This document shows positions 2,414-47,873 of a stretch of DNA of 64,000 nucleotides, in pieces. Every line of letters starts with the position of its first letter. Position 1 is the first letter of the stretch. Below the pieces are notes generated by a model, which had not been told where the DNA came from, searched no databases, and was given only the letters and a program-made list of their open reading frames with translations. The translations under genes were made by a program, and so were the position numbers. The stretch spans positions 47,865 to 111,864 of the IMG/VR virus record IMGVR_UViG_3300045988_094716; one strand, 5' to 3'. The DNA is from a virus.

Positions 2414-2647
2414 ATGTGGGTTTTAGCTAAATGCCAATATTCAGATGATAACAAGATTGGATATGCTGTATTTTACGATATTGATAAGCTTGGGTGTGTA
2501 ACACTTATGTTCAAAATATATGAAGATACAAATTCTATTGAGTTCTTTTATTGTCTATTAGAAGTGAGTACTCTGCTAGAAAAGAAAACGTGTGAGAATA
2601 TCTTAAAAGACTATTTGAAAGAGAAAGGGATTTTTGTAGAGGATTAA
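2414..2647 (+). CDS. hypothetical protein (77 aa)
   Basis: ATG after AAGGAG RBS. Confidence 0.5.
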   Translation: MWVLAKCQYSDDNKIGYAVFYDIDKLGCVTLMFKIYEDTNSIEFFYCLLEVSTLLEKKTCENILKDYLKEKGIFVED

Positions 2648-2649
2648 CC

Positions 2650-2892
2650 ATGTGGGATTTAATGGGGAACAATTATTCAGAAGTATACGGTATTGGATAT
2701 GCTTTACTGAATGGAATTTCAGCTGGGTTTTATGTGAGCGTCATGTATAAGAATCTTGGAAATGAAATTTACTTCTATTATCTTGATGATGCTCCTTATG
2801 GAGAACTCAATGATAATACCAAAAATAAAATTGAGGATATTATCTATGATGACCTTAACAAGCGTCATATTTTTGGGTTTGGGGAGGACTGA
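2650..2892 (+). CDS. hypothetical protein (80 aa)
   Basis: ORF with RBS. Confidence 0.5.
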   Translation: MWDLMGNNYSEVYGIGYALLNGISAGFYVSVMYKNLGNEIYFYYLDDAPYGELNDNTKNKIEDIIYDDLNKRHIFGFGED

Positions 2893-2894
2893 TT

Positions 2895-3149
2895 ATGTGG
2901 GATCTGAGGGAAGTTCACGCTTGTTTTGATGGTGAAGGTTGGGTTTGGAATGAATCTTTTCATCACAAGAATGTGTTCGTAGGTGAGAATGAAGATCCGA
3001 AAGAAATCTTTTGGCAGGAATGTCAGATGTTCTTCCTTCAGGATTATCTGAGCAAGTGTGAGATTGTGGATGTTAACGGCGGTGATATTTTGGAACTTCA
3101 GCTGAAAGATTCTGGTGAGCCGGTTCTTGCTATAGTGATTGCAGAGTAA
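2895..3149 (+). CDS. hypothetical protein (84 aa)
   Basis: ORF with GGGGAGG RBS. Confidence 0.5.
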   Translation: MWDLREVHACFDGEGWVWNESFHHKNVFVGENEDPKEIFWQECQMFFLQDYLSKCEIVDVNGGDILELQLKDSGEPVLAIVIAE

Positions 3150-3161
3150 AGGAGAATAAAA

Positions 3162-3422
3162 ATGTTGCTTTTTAATGATGTCTTGGATGACTGCATTGTA
3201 ATTGTTAAGGATGATAACGGTAACAGCAGAGTTATTTCTGGCAGTGCTGACTCCATGCTTTATGACTGGTGGCACGAATGTAATTATGTGTCAAGTAATG
3301 ATTCTTTGGTTGTTTACGCTGCTTGTTTTGGAGTGGAAGTGAAATGTAAAACGTTCGGAGAATATATGAAAATGATTGATAAGATTGCCGGAAGCTGTGA
3401 TGGAATTGAAAGGGAAGAATGA
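3162..3422 (+). CDS. hypothetical protein (86 aa)
   Basis: ORF with AAGGAG RBS. Confidence 0.5.
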   Translation: MLLFNDVLDDCIVIVKDDNGNSRVISGSADSMLYDWWHECNYVSSNDSLVVYAACFGVEVKCKTFGEYMKMIDKIAGSCDGIEREE

Positions 3423-3425
3423 GTT

Positions 3426-3698
3426 ATGACGCGGTTTTATCTTAATGCGGGTGCTCTTGACCGTTGGATGCACCAGAATAAAGCACAATACACTGGTGCT
3501 TATGTTGAAGGTGTTTTAGTCGATAGCTTTGTTGTTGAAACAAAGCGTGGTGTTGCAGCCATCTACGAACACGCTCTGAATGAGTGGACAAGCAACTATT
3601 ATGTTGAGTTCACCGATTATAAGAATGGCTTTAAGAACGGAGAGGTCGATAAGATTTGGTCTGATTGGTATACTTTTGAAGAAAAGGCTAGTGCATAA
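3426..3698 (+). CDS. hypothetical protein (90 aa)
   Basis: ORF, weak RBS. Confidence 0.45.
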   Translation: MTRFYLNAGALDRWMHQNKAQYTGAYVEGVLVDSFVVETKRGVAAIYEHALNEWTSNYYVEFTDYKNGFKNGEVDKIWSDWYTFEEKASA

Positions 3699-3711
3699 GA
3701 GGTGAGTGAAT

Positions 3712-3897
3712 ATGAATGATGTTGAAAAGATTATCAATGCCTTGAAGGACGAATATTTTTATTGCCAAGATATTGCTTACACTGCGCAAAAAGAAGGCGA
3801 TGAAGAGAGAATGACATGGTATTATGGCAAAGCAACCGGAATTAAAAAGTCTATTGAAACAATCAAAAAAATGAAGAATTACGGAATTATTTTATAA
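3712..3897 (+). CDS. hypothetical protein (61 aa)
   Basis: ATG after GAGGTGAGTG RBS. Confidence 0.45.
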   Translation: MNDVEKIINALKDEYFYCQDIAYTAQKEGDEERMTWYYGKATGIKKSIETIKKMKNYGIIL

Positions 3898-3913
3898 AAG
3901 GGAGATTTTAGAT

Positions 3914-4780
3914 ATGACAAACTTATATTGCTACGATAATGAAATTATAAAATGGACTTACGGCGATAACCTGTATTGCTTACATATTCAGCACGACGAC
4001 GTTGCAGACAATAACCCTCGTTGGTGGGACGACCACGATTCTGTGATGGCTTGTTTCCATCCTCGTTACCGTCTTGGTGATAAGGTCGATGCGAGTACGG
4101 CAGAAGAATTTTGGAATAATCTGGTTTACAAGTATTGCTCTTATGAAGAGATTCTGGATGCGCTTTTCAATATGAAACTGGAAGATACTTGTGTTGTTGT
4201 TGATGAAAATTATAGCGACGAAAAACGATATGCCATCTGCGGTATTGGAACTCTTTATGATGAAAAAGTTTCCGAAGGCCCGATATATGTTGGATTGAAA
4301 CATAACGAAATTGCTACATATGTTGCTGGTGAATTTTCTATTCGTGATTGTCAGATTCTTCTTGATAAGCACATCGCATGGCTTCCTCTTTGGCTACATG
4401 ACCATTCTGGTTTGTCTATGGATTGCGATACGCGGTTCAGAGGTTCATGGGATGATAGTAATGTTGGTTGGATTGTGACAGCTATTACGGATGGTTCGGA
4501 TAATACCAAAAATGAAGCAGAACGAATTATGCGTGATGAGGTAAAGACTTATAGCGATTATCTTTCCGGTGAGAATTACGGCTACACGCTTTATCGAGAA
4601 GATCACGGAAAATGGAAGGAGATTGACAGAGCATTTGGATTTATCGGTTCTGATGTGTTTGAAAACGGTATCACATACAGCGCTGGTTGTGGCCTTGAAA
4701 CAGCATTGAAGGAAGATCGATGCCGTATCGGTGACGCTGAGAAGGTTGTGACAGTCACTTATAACTTTGATAAATGTTGA
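3914..4780 (+). CDS. hypothetical protein (288 aa), acidic, possible antirestriction-like
   Basis: long ORF with RBS; no motif I can assign firmly. Confidence 0.55.
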   Translation: MTNLYCYDNEIIKWTYGDNLYCLHIQHDDVADNNPRWWDDHDSVMACFHPRYRLGDKVDASTAEEFWNNLVYKYCSYEEILDALFNMKLEDTCVVVDENYSDEKRYAICGIGTLYDEKVSEGPIYVGLKHNEIATYVAGEFSIRDCQILLDKHIAWLPLWLHDHSGLSMDCDTRFRGSWDDSNVGWIVTAITDGSDNTKNEAERIMRDEVKTYSDYLSGENYGYTLYREDHGKWKEIDRAFGFIGSDVFENGITYSAGCGLETALKEDRCRIGDAEKVVTVTYNFDKC

Positions 4781-6548: not shown

Positions 6549-6564
6549 GGGAGGGCCGGAAAAC

Positions 6565-21753: not shown

Positions 21754-21945
21754 TTAAGACATTTTCTTCCTCCGAAAATGCCCTGAGCGGGGCTGACAGC
21801 CGGGAAAGACCGGCAATATATGCCAAGGTGCTGCAAATGGGAGACAGGGCGAGCCCAAACCTCGCTGTGGAAACACATGCGGTTTCGAATACCGTCCTTG
21901 GCACCAGAGCCCGAACGTCCATCTATTAGATATTGGAGGCATTTT

Positions 21946-22842
21946 ATGAAAAAGATTGATAAACTTACAAAAGAAGAAATTGAGCAAGCTTTTGAGGAAA
22001 GCAAAAGTTAGGCTGCGGTTGCGGAGAAGCTTGGATATTCAAAAAATGGTGGAAGTACGAATCATGTACTTCAAGATTATGCAAAAGCGCACAATATAAA
22101 TACTTCTCATTTCACTGGGCAGGGCTAGAATAAAGGGAACGTGGATTTGTCTCGTTTTAAAAATGGAAGACGAATAAAGGATTTAAAATCCGCACTTCTT
22201 TCTATCAAACCATATAAGTGTGAATGTTGTGGAAACTCTGAATAGATGGGCAAACAGATTCCATTGCAAGTACATCATATTGACGGAAACCACATAAATA
22301 ATGAGTTAGACAATCTTCAGTTGCTTTGCCCGAATTGTCATGCACAAACTGATAATTGGTGCAAAAATAATATCGGAAAATACAAGACCGTGAGCGATAA
22401 AGATTTTCTTGATGCGTTAAAAACAACATCAACTATAAATGCTGCTCTTGAAAAAGTTGGAATTTATTATTCTGCGAGAGTGTGGTATGACAAAGCAAGG
22501 CAACTAATGATTGAAAACAACGTAACTCAAATTCCACGTGAAAAGGTTATCCGTGAGAAAAAAGAAAGAAAAAGAAGAAAAATCAAATATTGTTCAATAT
22601 GCGGAAAAGAAATGAGTCCGCGTGCAAAAGGATGTCTCTGTAAAAATTGTTTAAAAGGAAATCCTTACAGTAAACGCATTGATTTTCCTGATAAAGAGCA
22701 ATTGAGGGTAGACACAGCTTCAATGTCCTTTCAAGATGTTGGAAGAAAATATGGAGTATCAGGAAATGCAATACGTAAATGGTGCAAGCATTATGATTTA
22801 CCATACAGAAAATTAGATATGAACAGTAAAGAGGAAAATTAA
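21946..22842 (+). pseudogene. HNH endonuclease gene; a single frame interrupted only by three TAG codons. Pseudogene or amber-recoded gene
   Basis: frame open for 299 codons except TAG at 22009, 22126 and 22243; HNH core LQVHHIDGNHINNELDNLQLLCPNCH lies downstream. Confidence 0.6.
22246..22842 (+). CDS. HNH endonuclease catalytic portion (ATG-initiated segment after third TAG)
   Basis: HHIDGN...N...CPNCH HNH motif. Confidence 0.55.
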   Translation: MGKQIPLQVHHIDGNHINNELDNLQLLCPNCHAQTDNWCKNNIGKYKTVSDKDFLDALKTTSTINAALEKVGIYYSARVWYDKARQLMIENNVTQIPREKVIREKKERKRRKIKYCSICGKEMSPRAKGCLCKNCLKGNPYSKRIDFPDKEQLRVDTASMSFQDVGRKYGVSGNAIRKWCKHYDLPYRKLDMNSKEEN

Positions 22843-22855
22843 CGTTGATAAAAAA

Positions 22856-22882
22856 GAAGCTGTAAAAAAAAAATACAGCTTC
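22856..22882 (+). terminator. 9-bp perfect hairpin GAAGCTGTA-(A)9-TACAGCTTC, possible bidirectional terminator
   Basis: inverted repeat directly after HNH gene stop. Confidence 0.4.
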
Positions 22883-22889
22883 TATATAT

Positions 22890-22977
22890 GCCGCAGTGAT
22901 GGAGTGACATACATTTCCCGCTTAAACCGGGACGCCTGAAATATGGATCGTGGGTTTGAATCCCACCTGCGGCACCA
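22890..22977 (+). tRNA. tRNA-Leu (anticodon TAA), long variable arm, CCA encoded
   Basis: acceptor GCCGCAG/CTGCGGC; anticodon arm TCCCG-CTTAAAC-CGGGA; T arm GTGGG-TTTGAAT-CCCAC. Confidence 0.75.
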
Positions 22978-22980
22978 TAT

Positions 22981-23054
22981 CGAGAACGTGGTGTAATGGT
23001 AACACGCCTGCTTTGGGAGCAGGAGTTGCAGTTCAAATCTGACGTTTTCGACCA
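22981..23054 (+). tRNA. tRNA-Pro (anticodon TGG) with imperfect T-stem, possibly degenerate
   Basis: anticodon arm CCTGC-TTTGGGA-GCAGG; acceptor CGAGAAC/GTTTTCG; ends ACCA. Confidence 0.45.
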
Positions 23055-23149
23055 GTTGGTTTTCCAACATGCTTTTCATAAAATACATTTCCTATTATTC
23101 TTGGCTCTCCAAAAATGGAGCAATAGGACACAGCAAGCCAAGTATATAA

Positions 23150-23223
23150 TGCGTCGTAGCCAAGCGGTTAAGGCAGGGTCCTTTGAAGTCCCGATTGCGA
23201 AAGTTCGATTCTTTCCGGCGCAA
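23150..23223 (+). tRNA. tRNA-Gln (anticodon TTG)
   Basis: Gln-type D arm GCC-AAGCGGTTAA-GGC; anticodon loop CTTTGAA; T arm GAAAG-TTCGATT-CTTTC; acceptor TGCGTCG/CGGCGCA. Confidence 0.6.
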
Positions 23224-23230
23224 TTTATAT

Positions 23231-23315
23231 GCCACAGTGGTGGAATTGACCTACACATCTATTTTAGGGGTAGACGCCGAAAGGCTTGCGAGTTTGAGTC
23301 TCGCCTGTGGCACCA
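23231..23315 (+). tRNA. tRNA-Leu (anticodon TAG), long variable arm, CCA encoded
   Basis: acceptor GCCACAG/CTGTGGC; anticodon arm TCTAT-TTTAGGG-GTAGA; T arm GCGAG-TTTGAGT-CTCGC. Confidence 0.75.
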
Positions 23316-23421
23316 CGGTCATAGAATGGTTGCGTACCGTTTATTGATCTCCTTTGATTGCCACTATTATTCCCGGCTCGCCAGTGATGGTGCAGTAGTG
23401 CTTTGTAAGCTGGGTTTTCAT

Positions 23422-23496
23422 GCAGCGGTCGTACAACGGCTAGTACATCAGCCTTCCAAGTCGATGGAGTGGGTTCGATTCCCATTCGCTGCTCCA
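23422..23496 (+). tRNA. tRNA, probably Gly (anticodon TCC), with an A:C mismatch in the anticodon stem
   Basis: acceptor GCAGCGG/TCGCTGC; D arm GTAC-AACGGCTA-GTAC; loop CTTCCAA; T arm GTGGG-TTCGATT-CCCAT; CCA encoded. Confidence 0.5.
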
Positions 23497-23677
23497 ATCT
23501 CGTATGGGTAGGATCTTTAGCAGTCAGATCCTGCTGCGCCTGTGCGAGATACCACCCCGAAAGGGGCTAACGAAATTATCCATGTACGTTATTCTCGGCT
23601 CGCTCGAAAGAGTGCAGCGTGCCTTTGCAAGCCGAGCATCCCAGCCTAGTGATGCCAGTTGCTAGGTTGGTTCTTAT

Positions 23678-23753
23678 GCGACTGTAGTTCAATTGGCAGA
23701 GCGTCAGATTTCCAATCTGAATGTTGCGGGATCGTCCCCCGTCAGTCGCTCCA
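23678..23753 (+). tRNA. tRNA-Gly (anticodon TCC), CCA encoded
   Basis: acceptor GCGACTG/CAGTCGC; anticodon arm TCAGA-TTTCCAA-TCTGA; 76 nt. Confidence 0.75.
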
Positions 23754-23980
23754 CACGCAGCCCCTGACGCTGCACCGGTTACTCAGAGCCGAAAGGAACC
23801 TATATGTTACGACATGGTTGCCAAGAGTGATCATATTGGAACGCGACGTAGCTTGGATAGTGAGAATTAAATTCTGAGGTATACGGCTGGATAGCTTAAT
23901 GGTAAAAGCGCTCGGAAACACCGAGAGATGAGGTTCGATCCCTCCACTGGCATCGCGCCGACGAAAGTTGGCGGTTATAT

Positions 23981-24056
23981 GGAATAGTAGCTCAGTTGGT
24001 TAGCGCCGACAACTTATAATTGTCAGACGCGAGTTCAAATCTCGACTATTCCACCA
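23981..24056 (+). tRNA. tRNA-Ile (anticodon TAT, reads ATA), CCA encoded
   Basis: acceptor GGAATAG/CTATTCC; anticodon arm GACAA-CTTATAA-TTGTC; T loop TTCAAAT. Confidence 0.65.
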
Positions 24057-24197
24057 TCCCGAAAGGGCGTACATAAAATCTGCTAGAACTTTTGTTTTAT
24101 AAGCGAATGAATAATATGACGTTAATACGTCTATTGTTTTTTGCTTATTTTCGGGGATTTAGCTATATAACACAGGATACGAAAAGGAGGTGGTTTG

Positions 24198-24281
24198 GTG
24201 AAACATTATGGAAGTATTTGCGAGATTGGTGGTTCTAAGATTGAGCCTGTCTCGTGTATCACTGGTGGTTCACCTTGTTAG
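24198..24281 (+). pseudogene. C5-MTase fragment carrying the catalytic PC of motif IV (GTG start, ends GGSPC-TAG), out of frame with the rest of the gene
   Basis: ...IEPVSCITGGSPC in frame A; canonical PCQDLSIAGKR is restored only by removing 4 nt (TAGC, 24279-24282). Confidence 0.5.
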
Positions 24282-24870
24282 CCAAGACCTTTCTATTGCC
24301 GGTAAGCGGGCAGGTTTGGCTGGAGAACGGTCTGGTCTATTTATGGAAATGATTCGTGTGATAAAGGAAATGAGGGATGCCACCAATGGAGAATGTCCAA
24401 AATTTGCAATCTGGGAAAATGTCCCAGGAGCCTTCTCTTCCAACAAAGGAGAAGACTTTAGATGTGTCTTGGAAGAATTTGCACGCATTGTCGAACCAAG
24501 TGTTTCAGTTCCTCGACCTTCGGGAAGAGAATGTAAGTGGGCAAAAGCTGGAGCAATCGCCGGAAACGGATGGTCCTTGGCGTGGAGATTATTCGACGCT
24601 AGTGGTTGGGGTGTTCCCCAGCGTAGAAAACGTCTCGCGCTTGTCATGGACCTTAGAGGACAATGTGCCGGAAAAGTATTATTTGAGCAAACGGGCGTGT
24701 CAGGGGATCTTGACAAGAGCATCAAGACGTGGAAAACCATTGCCCGACCTTCTGAAGGATGCACTGCAGGAGATGATTCATTGGTGGGAGATGAAAGATC
24801 CTACACTTTGAAGATTCGTTCTGGCTGCGCAGGGGGGGGGGTAAAGGAGCACTCGTGCAGAATGAATTGA
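24208..24870 (+). CDS. DNA (cytosine-5)-methyltransferase segment with motifs IV (partial), VI (ENV) and VIII (QRRKRL); carries a G10 tract near its 3' end
   Basis: SQDLSIAGKRAGL, FAIWENVPG, GVPQRRKRLALV. Confidence 0.6.
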   Translation: MEVFARLVVLRLSLSRVSLVVHLVSQDLSIAGKRAGLAGERSGLFMEMIRVIKEMRDATNGECPKFAIWENVPGAFSSNKGEDFRCVLEEFARIVEPSVSVPRPSGRECKWAKAGAIAGNGWSLAWRLFDASGWGVPQRRKRLALVMDLRGQCAGKVLFEQTGVSGDLDKSIKTWKTIARPSEGCTAGDDSLVGDERSYTLKIRSGCAGGGVKEHSCRMN

Positions 24871-24935
24871 GTGCGACTCTCTCCACTTTGCAAGATCAGA
24901 CTTTGTTCTGTGTAAAGCATTAAGGAGGGAATAGA

Positions 24936-25691
24936 TTGGAAAAAGAAACTAGTTTACATAATTTAAAACAAAATATTTCCACAGCGGGATTTGAAAGCCA
25001 TAGTCAGGATGCTCGATACACTCAGCAAGGTAATACAAGCCCAGCTTGTACGGCTCAATGGGGTACTGGTGGTAATAATATGCCGCTTGTCGCTGAAAAG
25101 AAAGCCTTTGCTATGCAGCGTATTGGTGAATATAAGGAAAACGAACAGGCCAGCACAATGAAATCTCGTGATTATAAAGATGCAACTGATCTTGTAGTTG
25201 AAGAGAAAGAGGTGAAATGTGCTGGATTTCCACTTGGATTTAGAGCAGAAAATACGAAATGCTACGATGAAGTGGCTACTACGCTTTGCAATGGTACGCG
25301 GCCTGGATTTACTACTGGATGTGTTCTCAATTGGATTGTTCGCCGCTTGACTCCTGTCGAGTGTGAACGGTTACAGGGTTTTCCTGATGGATGGACCGAT
25401 ATTGGCGAGTGGGTTGACGAGAATGGTAAAAAGCACAAGCCAGCTGATTCTCCTCGGTACAAGGCACTCGGTAATTCAATCGCTTTGCCTCAGTGGTATT
25501 GGATTTTCCAGAAAATGAAGCCGTATATCGGTGAAAATCCTACGCTTGGCAGTCTTTTCGATGGGATTGGTGGCTTTCCGCTTGTCTTTGAAAGTACGTA
25601 TGGTGATGGTACTGCTATCTGGGGATCTGAAATCGAACCGTTCTGCGTTGCAGTAACTAAGAAGCATTTTCCAGAAAAGCAAGGAGGATAA
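24936..25691 (+). CDS. C5-MTase segment: target-recognition region + motifs IX/X, followed by motifs I-III at its C-terminus (circular permutation); TTG start
   Basis: RRLTPVECERLQGFPDGWT...YKALGNSIALP (IX/X), then LFDGIGGF...SEIEPFCVAVTKKHFPE (I-III); AAGGAGGG RBS. Confidence 0.6.
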   Translation: MEKETSLHNLKQNISTAGFESHSQDARYTQQGNTSPACTAQWGTGGNNMPLVAEKKAFAMQRIGEYKENEQASTMKSRDYKDATDLVVEEKEVKCAGFPLGFRAENTKCYDEVATTLCNGTRPGFTTGCVLNWIVRRLTPVECERLQGFPDGWTDIGEWVDENGKKHKPADSPRYKALGNSIALPQWYWIFQKMKPYIGENPTLGSLFDGIGGFPLVFESTYGDGTAIWGSEIEPFCVAVTKKHFPEKQGG

Positions 25692-25692
25692 T

Positions 25693-26235
25693 TTGCCAGA
25701 AAACAAAGGATATTTAACAGCTGACCGATCTGCGGCAGGCGATGAGCGATACACACCGGTTTACGCGGTTATTCCATTGCTTGAATTTGCCCCCCCGTCG
25801 AGTGAAGCAGTGATTTGGTGTCCGTTTGATAAAGAGTGGTCTGCCTTTGTGAAGGTGTTCAGAGATGCTGGATATAAAGTAGAATGTAGCCACATTGATA
25901 ACGGGCAAGATTTCTTTACATATGAACCAGAAAATTGGGATGTTATAATTTCAAATCCTCCTTTTAGCAAGAAGGATGAAGTATTACGTAGGGCCTATGA
26001 ACTCGGAAAGCCGTTTGCTCTACTGCTTCCTGCAAATAGTATTCAGGGTAAGACGCGATTTGATATTTTCAAAAATGACGTACAGATGCTATGTTTTGAT
26101 TCTCGAATAGGATTCATGGACCCTAAACACGCAGACAGCCCTGTCGAGGGAGTGTCTTTTGGAAGTGCATACTTCTGTAGAAATTTTCTTCCCAGTAAGT
26201 TAGAGTTACGAAAACTTGATAAGAAAATCTCATAA
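25693..26235 (+). CDS. DNA N6-adenine methyltransferase, small phage Dam-like (NPPF motif); TTG start
   Basis: ERYTPVYAVIPL N-terminus, IISNPPFS catalytic motif; AAGGAGG RBS. Confidence 0.65.
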   Translation: MPENKGYLTADRSAAGDERYTPVYAVIPLLEFAPPSSEAVIWCPFDKEWSAFVKVFRDAGYKVECSHIDNGQDFFTYEPENWDVIISNPPFSKKDEVLRRAYELGKPFALLLPANSIQGKTRFDIFKNDVQMLCFDSRIGFMDPKHADSPVEGVSFGSAYFCRNFLPSKLELRKLDKKIS

Positions 26236-47862: not shown

Positions 47863-47873
47863 AGGAGGATTAA

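Follow-up and report, generated by a model that had tools for sequence, protein, structure and literature searches.

A DNA (cytosine-5) methyltransferase (C5-MTase) gene with a permuted motif order lies at positions 24198-25691 of the viral DNA analysed here, a 64,000-nucleotide stretch of IMG/VR record IMGVR_UViG_3300045988_094716 (positions 47,865 to 111,864 of that record) that we call the window. When the locus is read in three frames, its conserved motifs fall in the order III-IV-VI-VIII-TRD-IX-X-I-II, where TRD stands for target-recognition domain. The canonical linear order from I to X is not kept, as the chain begins at motif III and motifs I-II come after X. The features of the locus, including its ribosome-binding sites (RBS) and open reading frames (ORFs), are as follows.

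24185-24193, + strand: RBS AGGAGGTGG, serving the leader GTG at 24198 (direct reading)
24198-24278, + strand: 27-codon leader VKHYGSICEIGGSKIEPVSCITGGSPC in frame 0, aligning to residues 50-76 of a canonical-order MTase
24204-24218, + strand: motif III, HYGSI, in the leader
24264-24278, + strand: motif IV, GGSPC with the catalytic Pro-Cys, at the end of the leader
24279-24282, + strand: TAGC, an in-frame UAG stop (24279-24281) plus one base between the Cys and Gln codons of motif IV; proposed recoding site
24283-24840, + strand: main frame (frame 1), from QDLSIAGKR to YTLKIRSGCAGGG, 52% identical to canonical residues 77-288
24377-24811, + strand: nested ORF of 144 codons, +1 relative to the main frame, with selection in its own frame
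24412-24435, + strand: motif VI, WENVPGAF, in the main frame
24613-24645, + strand: motif VIII, VPQRRKRLALV (VPQRRKR at 24613-24633), in the main frame
24832-24841, + strand: G10 homopolymer within Gly-Gly-Gly codons, out of frame (direct reading)
24843-24923, + strand: frame-0 segment KGALVQNELSATLSTLQDQTLFCVKH (24843-24920) and then TAA (24921), a conserved TRD module aligning to canonical residues 292-314
24922-24938, + strand: RBS AAGGAGGG and TTG start of the second polypeptide (direct reading and subclade conservation)
24936-25691, + strand: ORF2, 251 amino acids from the TTG, ending KKHFPEKQGG, with additional TRD modules and motifs IX, X, I and II
25341-25394, + strand: motif IX, RRLTPVECERLQGFP, in ORF2
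25455-25490, + strand: motif X, ALGNSIALP, in ORF2
25509-25541, + strand: linker QKMKPYIGENP between motifs X and I, in ORF2
25542-25577, + strand: motif I, LFDGIGGF (TLGSLFDGIGGF), in ORF2
25623-25643, + strand: motif II, SEIEPF, in ORF2

A sequence-only reading of this stretch had described a circularly permuted C5-MTase split into two ORFs, and its motif assignments and motif order are confirmed by Pfam matches and by BLASTP against a canonical-order relative. PF00145 matches the first ORF at positions 72-131 of the hidden Markov model (E 1.1e-15) and ORF2 at positions 269-323 (E 7.4e-11). The catalytic Pro-Cys of motif IV, the ENV of motif VI and the QxRxR of motif VIII are all present, with the Cys codon out of frame with the rest. 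The motifs that bind S-adenosylmethionine (AdoMet), namely I (FxGxGG), II (an acidic residue) and X (GN), lie together with motif IX within ORF2. Between these blocks, the main frame (24283-24840) carries the rest of motif IV, motifs VI and VIII, a weakly constrained linker and the first TRD module. A leader that reads from GTG 24198 through GGSPC and ends at a TAG is indeed present, as is the TAGC that puts the catalytic Cys out of frame: QDLSIAGKR begins at 24283 in the +1 frame, and deleting 24279-24282 gives back GGSPCQDLSIAG. The layout of two ORFs, the second with its own RBS and TTG, also proved real and is conserved in a subclade. The first ORF of that reading, 24208-24870, does hold motifs VI and VIII, but it is a composite rather than a single coding unit. 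Its first 24 codons are the leader read out of frame, and its last 9 lie out of frame beyond the G10 run. The 65-nucleotide gap reported between the two ORFs is in fact coding in frame 0 and belongs to the conserved TRD segment at 24843-24920.

The break point of the permutation can be placed exactly. In the canonical-order enzyme of phage NatCom_9291 (608 residues), BLASTP aligns residues 4-49 to residues 200-247 of ORF2, residues 50-314 to the repaired leader and main frame (E 1e-87, 52% identity over 269 columns), and residues 506-602 to motifs IX-X of ORF2. With canonical residue 49 the last in ORF2 and residue 50 the first in the leader, the seam is exact and the break falls between motifs II and III; the suggestion that the end of ORF2 would join seamlessly to the start of the first ORF therefore held. 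The former C- and N-termini are fused in frame, with motif X linked to motif I by QKMKPYIGENP. A tandem-duplication origin of the permutation is plausible, because the seam is exact and the M-K-P-Y... linker resembles a former N-terminus.

This topology, as computed from the alignments, recurs well beyond the window. Faecalibacterium phages FP_Toutatis and Lelie have the same motif order, and human-gut phage contigs MT836154, MT836051 and MT835513 encode permuted relatives as uninterrupted single ORFs of 452-603 residues. No fewer than 590 IMG/VR stretches have the X-to-I junction. When 1.84 billion proteins were searched, intact single-ORF permuted proteins accounted for at least 88 of the 150 best cluster representatives (clustering at 50% identity). 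Where a host is named, it belongs to Oscillospiraceae, Faecalibacterium or related Clostridia. The breadth of these matches indicates that the permutation is a family trait and not an accident, and that the locus belongs to a large gut phage and prophage family of DNA (cytosine-5) methyltransferases, methyl transfer itself being predicted. The family order is III-IV-V-VI-VII-VIII-TRD-IX-X-linker-I-II. Its chain thus opens between motifs II and III, and the AdoMet pocket would be closed by C-terminal motifs I-II and X together with N-terminal motif III.

A structural model of an intact relative is in keeping with this arrangement. We modelled P0114, which is 65% identical to the window protein, with AlphaFold2 from an alignment of 95 diverse family members. 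The predicted local distance difference test score (pLDDT) is 81-98 at residues 1-160 (motifs III-VIII), with a dip to 62 at residues 31-40, and 92-97 at residues 400-510 (motifs IX-X-I-II); the variable region is not confident and the predicted template modelling score is 0.65. The best matches of the model in the Protein Data Bank (PDB), found with Foldseek, are M.HhaI, M.MpeI and M.HaeIII, at a root-mean-square deviation of 1.7-3.2 A over ~150 residues. Judged on this relative, the catalytic domain is predicted to have the C5-MTase fold. Within the literature that we searched, the family would be the first in nature to have its permutation break between motifs II and III of a C5-MTase; further work on permuted C5-MTases is available (PMC7544214; bioRxiv 10.1101/2023.12.13.571470).

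The four nucleotides that follow the catalytic cysteine codon are not peculiar to the window. A pattern scan fixing TAGC found the TGT-TAGC-CAR arrangement in 66 IMG/VR contigs, and TGY-TAG-N-CAR is present in 96-106 distinct phage sequences. Among 96 distinct contexts, the insert is TAGA in 55, TAGC in 38 and TAGT in 3, and TAGG does not occur. A scan for any insert of 1-10 nucleotides returned almost exclusively TAGA, TAGC and TAGT, with single cases of TGA, TAGGT, TAGGGT, TTGC, TAGATGT, TGACCGC and TAGACAGT. The leader starts with GTG in 95 of the 96 distinct TAGN genes, behind the same arrangement of RBS and GTG. TAGN is also found in species-representative Oscillospiraceae genomes, including that of the isolate Oscillibacter sp. 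1-3.

Conservation and selection, computed over the 96 sequences, show how each flank is read. Codon-position entropies are 0.50/0.34/1.07 for the leader in the GGSPC frame and 0.72/0.63/1.38 downstream in the QDLS frame, and synonymous changes make up a fraction of 0.47 (leader frame) or 0.51 (QDLS frame) of all differences, as against 0.05-0.07 in the other frames. This third-position variability and the synonymous excess in both flanks imply that both pieces are translated and selected, in different frames, which argues against an inactivated gene as the cause of TAGC, one of two possibilities that the sequence-only reading had raised. The fourth base can be A, C or T, such that Arg (AGA) and Ser (AGC/AGT) alternate and the synonymous AGG is absent, a pattern suggesting that the termination context is under selection and not the encoded residue. 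Reportedly, a G after UAG gives the strongest termination.

An assembly error at TAGC, which had also been considered at the outset, is refuted: leader and TAGC are identical in five independent metagenome assemblies from different projects, and the downstream ORF is recorded in 329 assembly blocks. As an account of TAGC and/or the G10 run, sequencing or assembly artefact is very improbable. Homopolymer lengths are error-prone on some platforms, and the G7, G8 and G10 versions found among near-identical contigs could reflect such error; against this, TAGN recurs in some 100 diverged sequences that have substitutions to either side of it, and the other long ORFs of the window (up to 1097 amino acids) are intact. 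Taken across the family, TAGC is a maintained design, neither a sequencing error nor simple gene decay.

The insertion and the permutation are independent of each other, as TAGC also follows the Cys in genes of canonical I-X order and most permuted relatives carry an uninterrupted PCQ. In the canonical-order genes (L260-L267, for example L264 at position 6563) the context is GGT AGC CCC TGT TAGC CAG (UUCGGUAGCCCC), the upstream ORF has motifs I-IV, and TAGC occurs after TGC as well. Two family members (L087 and L083) are nearly identical downstream and differ in their leaders, one with TAGA and one without, so the leader and TAGN together look like a recombining cassette. A further permuted member, P0384 (1090 residues), carries a LAGLIDADG intein at GGSP|C of motif IV (residues ~26-388), 3 nucleotides from the TAGN site. 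It is possible that the TAGN insertion could also shield an allele from homing of the LAGLIDADG intein.

The comparative signature suggests translational recoding at TAGN, and we infer its mechanism as follows. Ribosomes would pause at a poorly terminating UAG-C/A and then, on the simplest reading, shift +1, giving PC-(S/R)-QD; skipping of four bases is a less likely alternative. A fraction of ribosomes would thereby enter QDLSIAG and make active enzyme, while the remainder would release the 27-residue peptide. The two routes predict different junction peptides, GGSPC(S)QDLSIAGK (GGSPCSQDLSIAGK) for the +1 shift and GGSPCQDLSIAGK, with canonical PCQD, for the 4-nucleotide bypass. As at the prfB frameshift site, there is an in-frame stop with continuation in the +1 frame, conserved across diverged homologues. 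The notion of a permuted methyltransferase in need of a frameshift, the other possibility raised from the sequence, comes close to this comparative indication, and it had overlooked both the G10 frameshift and the nested ORF. We hold with moderate confidence the overall explanation, which is a permuted phage C5-MTase family with a recoding site, a split into two chains, a G-tract switch and a nested ORF. What is new here would be a natural variant of a known enzyme with a conserved candidate recoding site at its catalytic Cys.

Several observations weigh against this explanation. With UGU or UGC in the P site, tRNA-Cys cannot re-pair on the +1 codon (GUU or GCU), unlike in prfB. The only element resembling a Shine-Dalgarno (SD) sequence, GGUGG, stands ~7 nucleotides upstream rather than 3, is dictated by the Gly-Gly codons and is absent from the canonical-order TAGC genes. 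RNAalifold found no conserved RNA structure 3' of TAGN. A gene with PC-(S/R)-QD in frame had 0 matches in IMG/VR and was found in 0 of 144 proteins, so the product of a simple +1 shift is without a natural in-frame counterpart. The rare inserts of 3, 5, 6 and 8 nucleotides at the same spot do not fit a +1 shift, and some of our codon-context statistics are biased by the search patterns used. The window copy would need three events to yield a full enzyme, namely recoding, G-tract correction and two-chain assembly. Additional frame breaks are present in 59% of TAGN genes and 42% of uninterrupted-PCQ genes, and decay or other switching is common. The 4-nucleotide bypass has its own difficulty, in that a matching landing codon is absent.

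Other routes past the UAG were considered and rejected. Were TAG read as Gln, GGSPCQ would lead into out-of-frame sequence that meets a TAA after 7 codons. Reversible excision of TAGN at the DNA level finds no support, as the leader cassette of the TAGN type is never seen without an insert. Nine matches to GGTGGTTCACCTTGTCAR proved to be unrelated canonical MTases.

It is also conceivable that nothing is recoded, and that the 27-residue leader and a Cys-less chain from an internal start (such as ATG 24208) are made separately, to form a non-covalent enzyme or to serve a non-catalytic role such as DNA binding or a decoy. C5-MTases do tolerate many artificial splits, and M.MpeI fragments [1-61] and [62-395] complement each other (PMC5944983); an upstream ATG (MEVFARL...) is where gene finders start the +1 ORF, and in-frame stop variants exist (TGC TGA CAG; TGT TAG GGT CAA). 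However, the +1-frame ATG is not fixed in position and lacks an RBS, some lineages have none whatever between the last +1-frame stop and QDLS, and the split would land in the catalytic loop, right after the nucleophile. A non-catalytic role is hard to square with purifying selection on a leader that keeps GGSPC and motif III. We consider separate synthesis of the two pieces quite improbable.

We give the least credence of all to a dedicated phage tRNA that decodes the insert, whether as a UAGN quadruplet reader or as an amber suppressor. An array of eight tRNA genes (21822-24056) lies directly upstream of the MTase and includes a tRNA-like remnant, and UAGA is an efficient engineered quadruplet codon. 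Yet no tRNA of the window has a CUA or four-base anticodon, and the remnant's anticodon loop is 5 nucleotides. Among 60 loci scanned, about half of those carrying TAGN lack a tRNA gene within 8-15 kb, and no suppressor was found. Small (40-60 kb) TAGN-carrying phages largely lack unusual tRNAs in the stretches examined, and an amber suppressor alone would not restore the frame. The array itself has features of note. The remnant (23886-23952, between tRNA-Gly and tRNA-Ile) scores 28.2 bits against an Rfam gathering score of 29 and is probably a degenerate tRNA. According to ARAGORN, the last tRNA before the MTase (23981-24056) has the anticodon TAT (Ile) in the window and CAT (Met, possibly Ile2) in most close relatives. 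An HNH endonuclease gene (22246-22842) sits within the array between tRNA-Leu(CAA) and tRNA-Leu(TAA). Of the stop codons of the window's 33 ORFs of at least 150 amino acids, TAG is scarce (2), with TAA at 17 and TGA at 14.

Downstream of motif VIII, the gene of the window is cut in two. Throughout a subclade of ~130-kb phages (90-97% nucleotide identity), the TAA, the RBS and the TTG are conserved, and all 9 members retain the segment at 24843-24920, with which the first polypeptide closes if the G tract is in frame. Other clades read straight through the split as ...QTLICLADNTSLHN... The cut lies in the variable region and each ORF has its own start signal, an arrangement that would yield two chains, presumably reassembling as in M.AquI. 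In a close relative (L081/L097, IMGVR_UViG_3300045988_100721), a deletion removes the YTLKIR/G-tract/TAA/TTG region and joins the nested +1 frame directly to the frame of ORF2, so that one +1 shift after motif VIII would give a full-length chain.

Within the first chain, G10 at 24832-24841 is the sole G run of at least 7 in a 64-kb window of 41% GC. Nine distinct subclade sequences (90-97% identity) have G7 in 4 cases, G8 in 3 and G10 in 2, and only G8 keeps the end of the main frame, YTLKIRSGCAGGG, in frame with KGALVQ... With G10 as sequenced, the window's first polypeptide finishes on nine residues read out of frame (VKEHSCRMN), and 26 conserved residues are missing from it. The tract lies within an ORF, varies in length among close relatives and toggles the frame, as contingency loci do, and would act as a phase switch in the first polypeptide. 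The window copy is probably in the OFF phase, because G10 puts the first chain out of frame. Phase variation within a population may underlie these lengths, and G7, G8 and G10 could also be homopolymer miscalls. FP_Toutatis and Lelie also differ in the length of a G run, inside RPAGGGG (~2440-2470 in both L001, FP_Toutatis, and L002, Lelie), a difference that sets the N-terminal part in different frames relative to motif VIII; in GenBank, one of the two phages has two 'DNA methyltransferase' coding sequences (CDSs) and the other an N-terminally truncated CDS.

The G10 frameshift is the defect most likely to make the window copy non-productive, and the copy could be dead or decaying while the features of its family are real. 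In support of this are the G10 run itself, the split, and a motif III that has GS and not GD. The main ORF stops 9 codons past G10, so that the KGALVQ...TLF module is not joined, and 6 of the 9 distinct subclade sequences have an out-of-frame G7 or G10. Additional breaks affect 40-60% of family genes, and the prophage copy in Oscillibacter sp. 1-3 is truncated. On the other hand, the flanks of the tract, the TAA/RBS/TTG and ORF2 are 90-97% identical in nine relatives with no other stops or indels. G7 and G10 differ by 3 nucleotides, leaving only two frame states, which is switch-like rather than random decay, and the run is the only long one of its kind in 64 kb. We regard a dead copy as unlikely, though it deserves to be taken seriously. 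At the level of the family, a single ORF through motif I is kept in 38 of 92 TAGN genes (apart from TAGN) and in 39 of 67 uninterrupted-PCQ genes, the remainder being broken mostly just after motif VIII or at G tracts. The family appears unusually prone to frame changes, which fits switching, yet individual copies may be dead.

A second coding layer overlaps the main frame after motif VIII. The nested ORF has a conserved core at 24635-24766 (SRLSWTLEDNVPEKYYLSKRACQGILTRASRRGKPLPDLLKDAL) that is kept in all relatives, and its TGA stop overlaps the T-L codons of YTLKIR. Where the main ORF is continuous (81 genes), the nested frame has a synonymous fraction of 0.56 and the main frame one of 0.03-0.09; over the region ~60-180 nucleotides after the Trp of WGVPQRR, the values are 0.43-0.57 (+1 frame) and 0.03-0.14 (main frame). 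Of 153 relatives, all 153 keep the nested frame open over 57 codons or more, as against a median of 25 for the other frame. The core is found, too, in the +1 frame of annotated canonical C5-MTase CDSs from Streptococcus phage Javan191, NatCom_9291, Vibrio phage K459 and virus Rctr41k, a conservation that reaches from gut phages of Firmicutes to those of Vibrio, and nested ORFs lie at 1501-1635 in L244, 2001-2138 in L245, 1801-1953 in L246 and 1801-1959 in L248. Gene finders have called 1832 small proteins of this type. The pattern of substitutions indicates that the nested ORF is under purifying selection, stronger there than that on the main frame. It would probably yield a separate small protein, as the beta chain of M.EcoHK31I is.

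Neither Pfam, nor PDB sequences, nor hhalign gave a match for the nested peptide, and hhalign against the family alignment returned a probability of 0.1. A likeness to the segment after motif VIII of E. coli Dcm and to motif IX was unsupported by any homology match. The nested +1 frame also carries the remainder of the enzyme (TRD-IX-X-I-II) in 14 genes. We rejected two compensating frameshifts that insert the nested segment as a general explanation, because both frames are conserved over the first 60 nucleotides of overlap, a slippery return site is lacking and 81 genes have continuous main ORFs. A reverse-strand gene was rejected as well, the synonymous fraction being at most 0.22 in reverse frames against 0.38 in the +1 frame.

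Taking these layers together, we tentatively extend the proposal beyond the permuted family. It is possible, if somewhat doubtful, that there is a family-wide recoding signal at the catalytic Cys of phage C5-MTases, permuted and canonical alike, which is passed without the re-pairing rules of prfB or T4 gene 60, along with a nested small protein conserved from Firmicutes to Vibrio phages. It is tempting to speculate that the UAG+1 signal may tie methyltransferase output to the activity of release factor 1 (RF1).

The surroundings of the gene are those of a phage replication module, with genes for a DnaB-like helicase, a primase, a RecJ-like exonuclease and a Sak4-like protein. Directly downstream is a second MTase gene, of the N6 type (25693-26235, PHROG 799). 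It contains the window's sole C run of at least 7 (C7, 25790-25796; C6 in relative L009), so that the only long G or C homopolymers of the window fall in its two neighbouring MTase genes. Megablast of the region against GenBank phages gave no match, and relatives were found at the protein level only.

Beyond the biology of one phage, these genes bear on annotation. Public gene calls for one relative (L249) omit an intact MTase ORF of 527 codons (2625-4205) and list a nested ORF of 77 codons and a C-terminal fragment instead, and database proteins of the family are often mis-started in the +1 frame (MEVFARL...VVHLVSQDLS). Gene finders systematically mis-call such genes, either through a +1-frame start that loses the catalytic Cys or by splitting them, and thousands of entries are affected. 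That one gene combines a recoding site, poly-G switches, a subunit split and a nested ORF suggests more ways for phages to tune or diversify DNA methylation than have been appreciated.

These layers can be set beside known systems. The +1 site of prfB (release factor 2), CUU-UGA-C, shares with TAGN an early in-frame stop, +1 continuation, a weak fourth-base context and conservation of both frames. Its stop is UGA, whereas the stop here is UAG, read by RF1, with a UGU/UGC P-site that does not re-pair, no SD-like element at 3-nucleotide spacing and a location inside a catalytic motif. A 2016 review stated a UAG counterpart of prfB to be unknown. UAG+1 after a catalytic Cys is a candidate for a new class of bacterial recoding site, and its ~100 natural variants could be used to infer the rules.

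The two-chain arrangement resembles that of M.AquI alpha/beta. M.AquI divides its motifs into I-VIII (large chain) and IX-X (small chain); here they fall into III-VIII on the first chain and IX-X plus I-II on the second, so that both chains contribute to the AdoMet site, and the split is limited to one subclade. The G tract has its likeness in the MTases of phasevarions, where a poly-G tract within the ORF similarly varies among close relatives and toggles the frame. Known phase-variable MTases are bacterial Type III and Type I mod/hsd genes, whereas this is a phage C5-MTase of the orphan type whose tract length differs among sequenced relatives. The layout of the nested ORF matches that of M.EcoHK31I, in which a different reading frame within the alpha gene encodes the beta chain (PMC2836561). 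Motif IX of EcoHK31I comes from beta, whereas the main chain here possesses a motif IX itself and no likeness to an MTase motif was detected in the nested peptide.

As for the permutation, enzymes of the M.BssHII type, or 'Type H' (M.BssHII, M.Alw26I, M2.Eco31I, M.Esp3I, M2.BsaI), also have motif X before motif I. They are broken in the variable region and have the order IX-X-I...VIII, whereas the N-terminus here aligns to canonical residue 50. Plant DRM2, with the order VI-X, I-V, differs again. In a 2018 REBASE survey, natural C5-MTase permutants were broken only in the variable region (PMC5944983). The window protein, with its N-terminus between II and III and its former termini fused, has the 'Type/Class B' permutation, a topology previously seen in engineered enzymes only. 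Engineered permutants of this kind, cp62M.MpeI and cp58M.SssI, surpassed all other engineered topologies in activity, coming near the wild type (PMC5944983, where M.HaeIII permutants from directed evolution are also cited), and in them, as here, the new N-terminus lies between II and III and the former termini are joined by a short linker. Those enzymes are laboratory constructs, whereas the present family occurs in nature, is widespread and diversified, and has multi-module TRDs that span 200-400 residues. The natural family thus appears to share the optimum of the engineered enzymes, the best-tolerated break, at large scale in the human gut virome.

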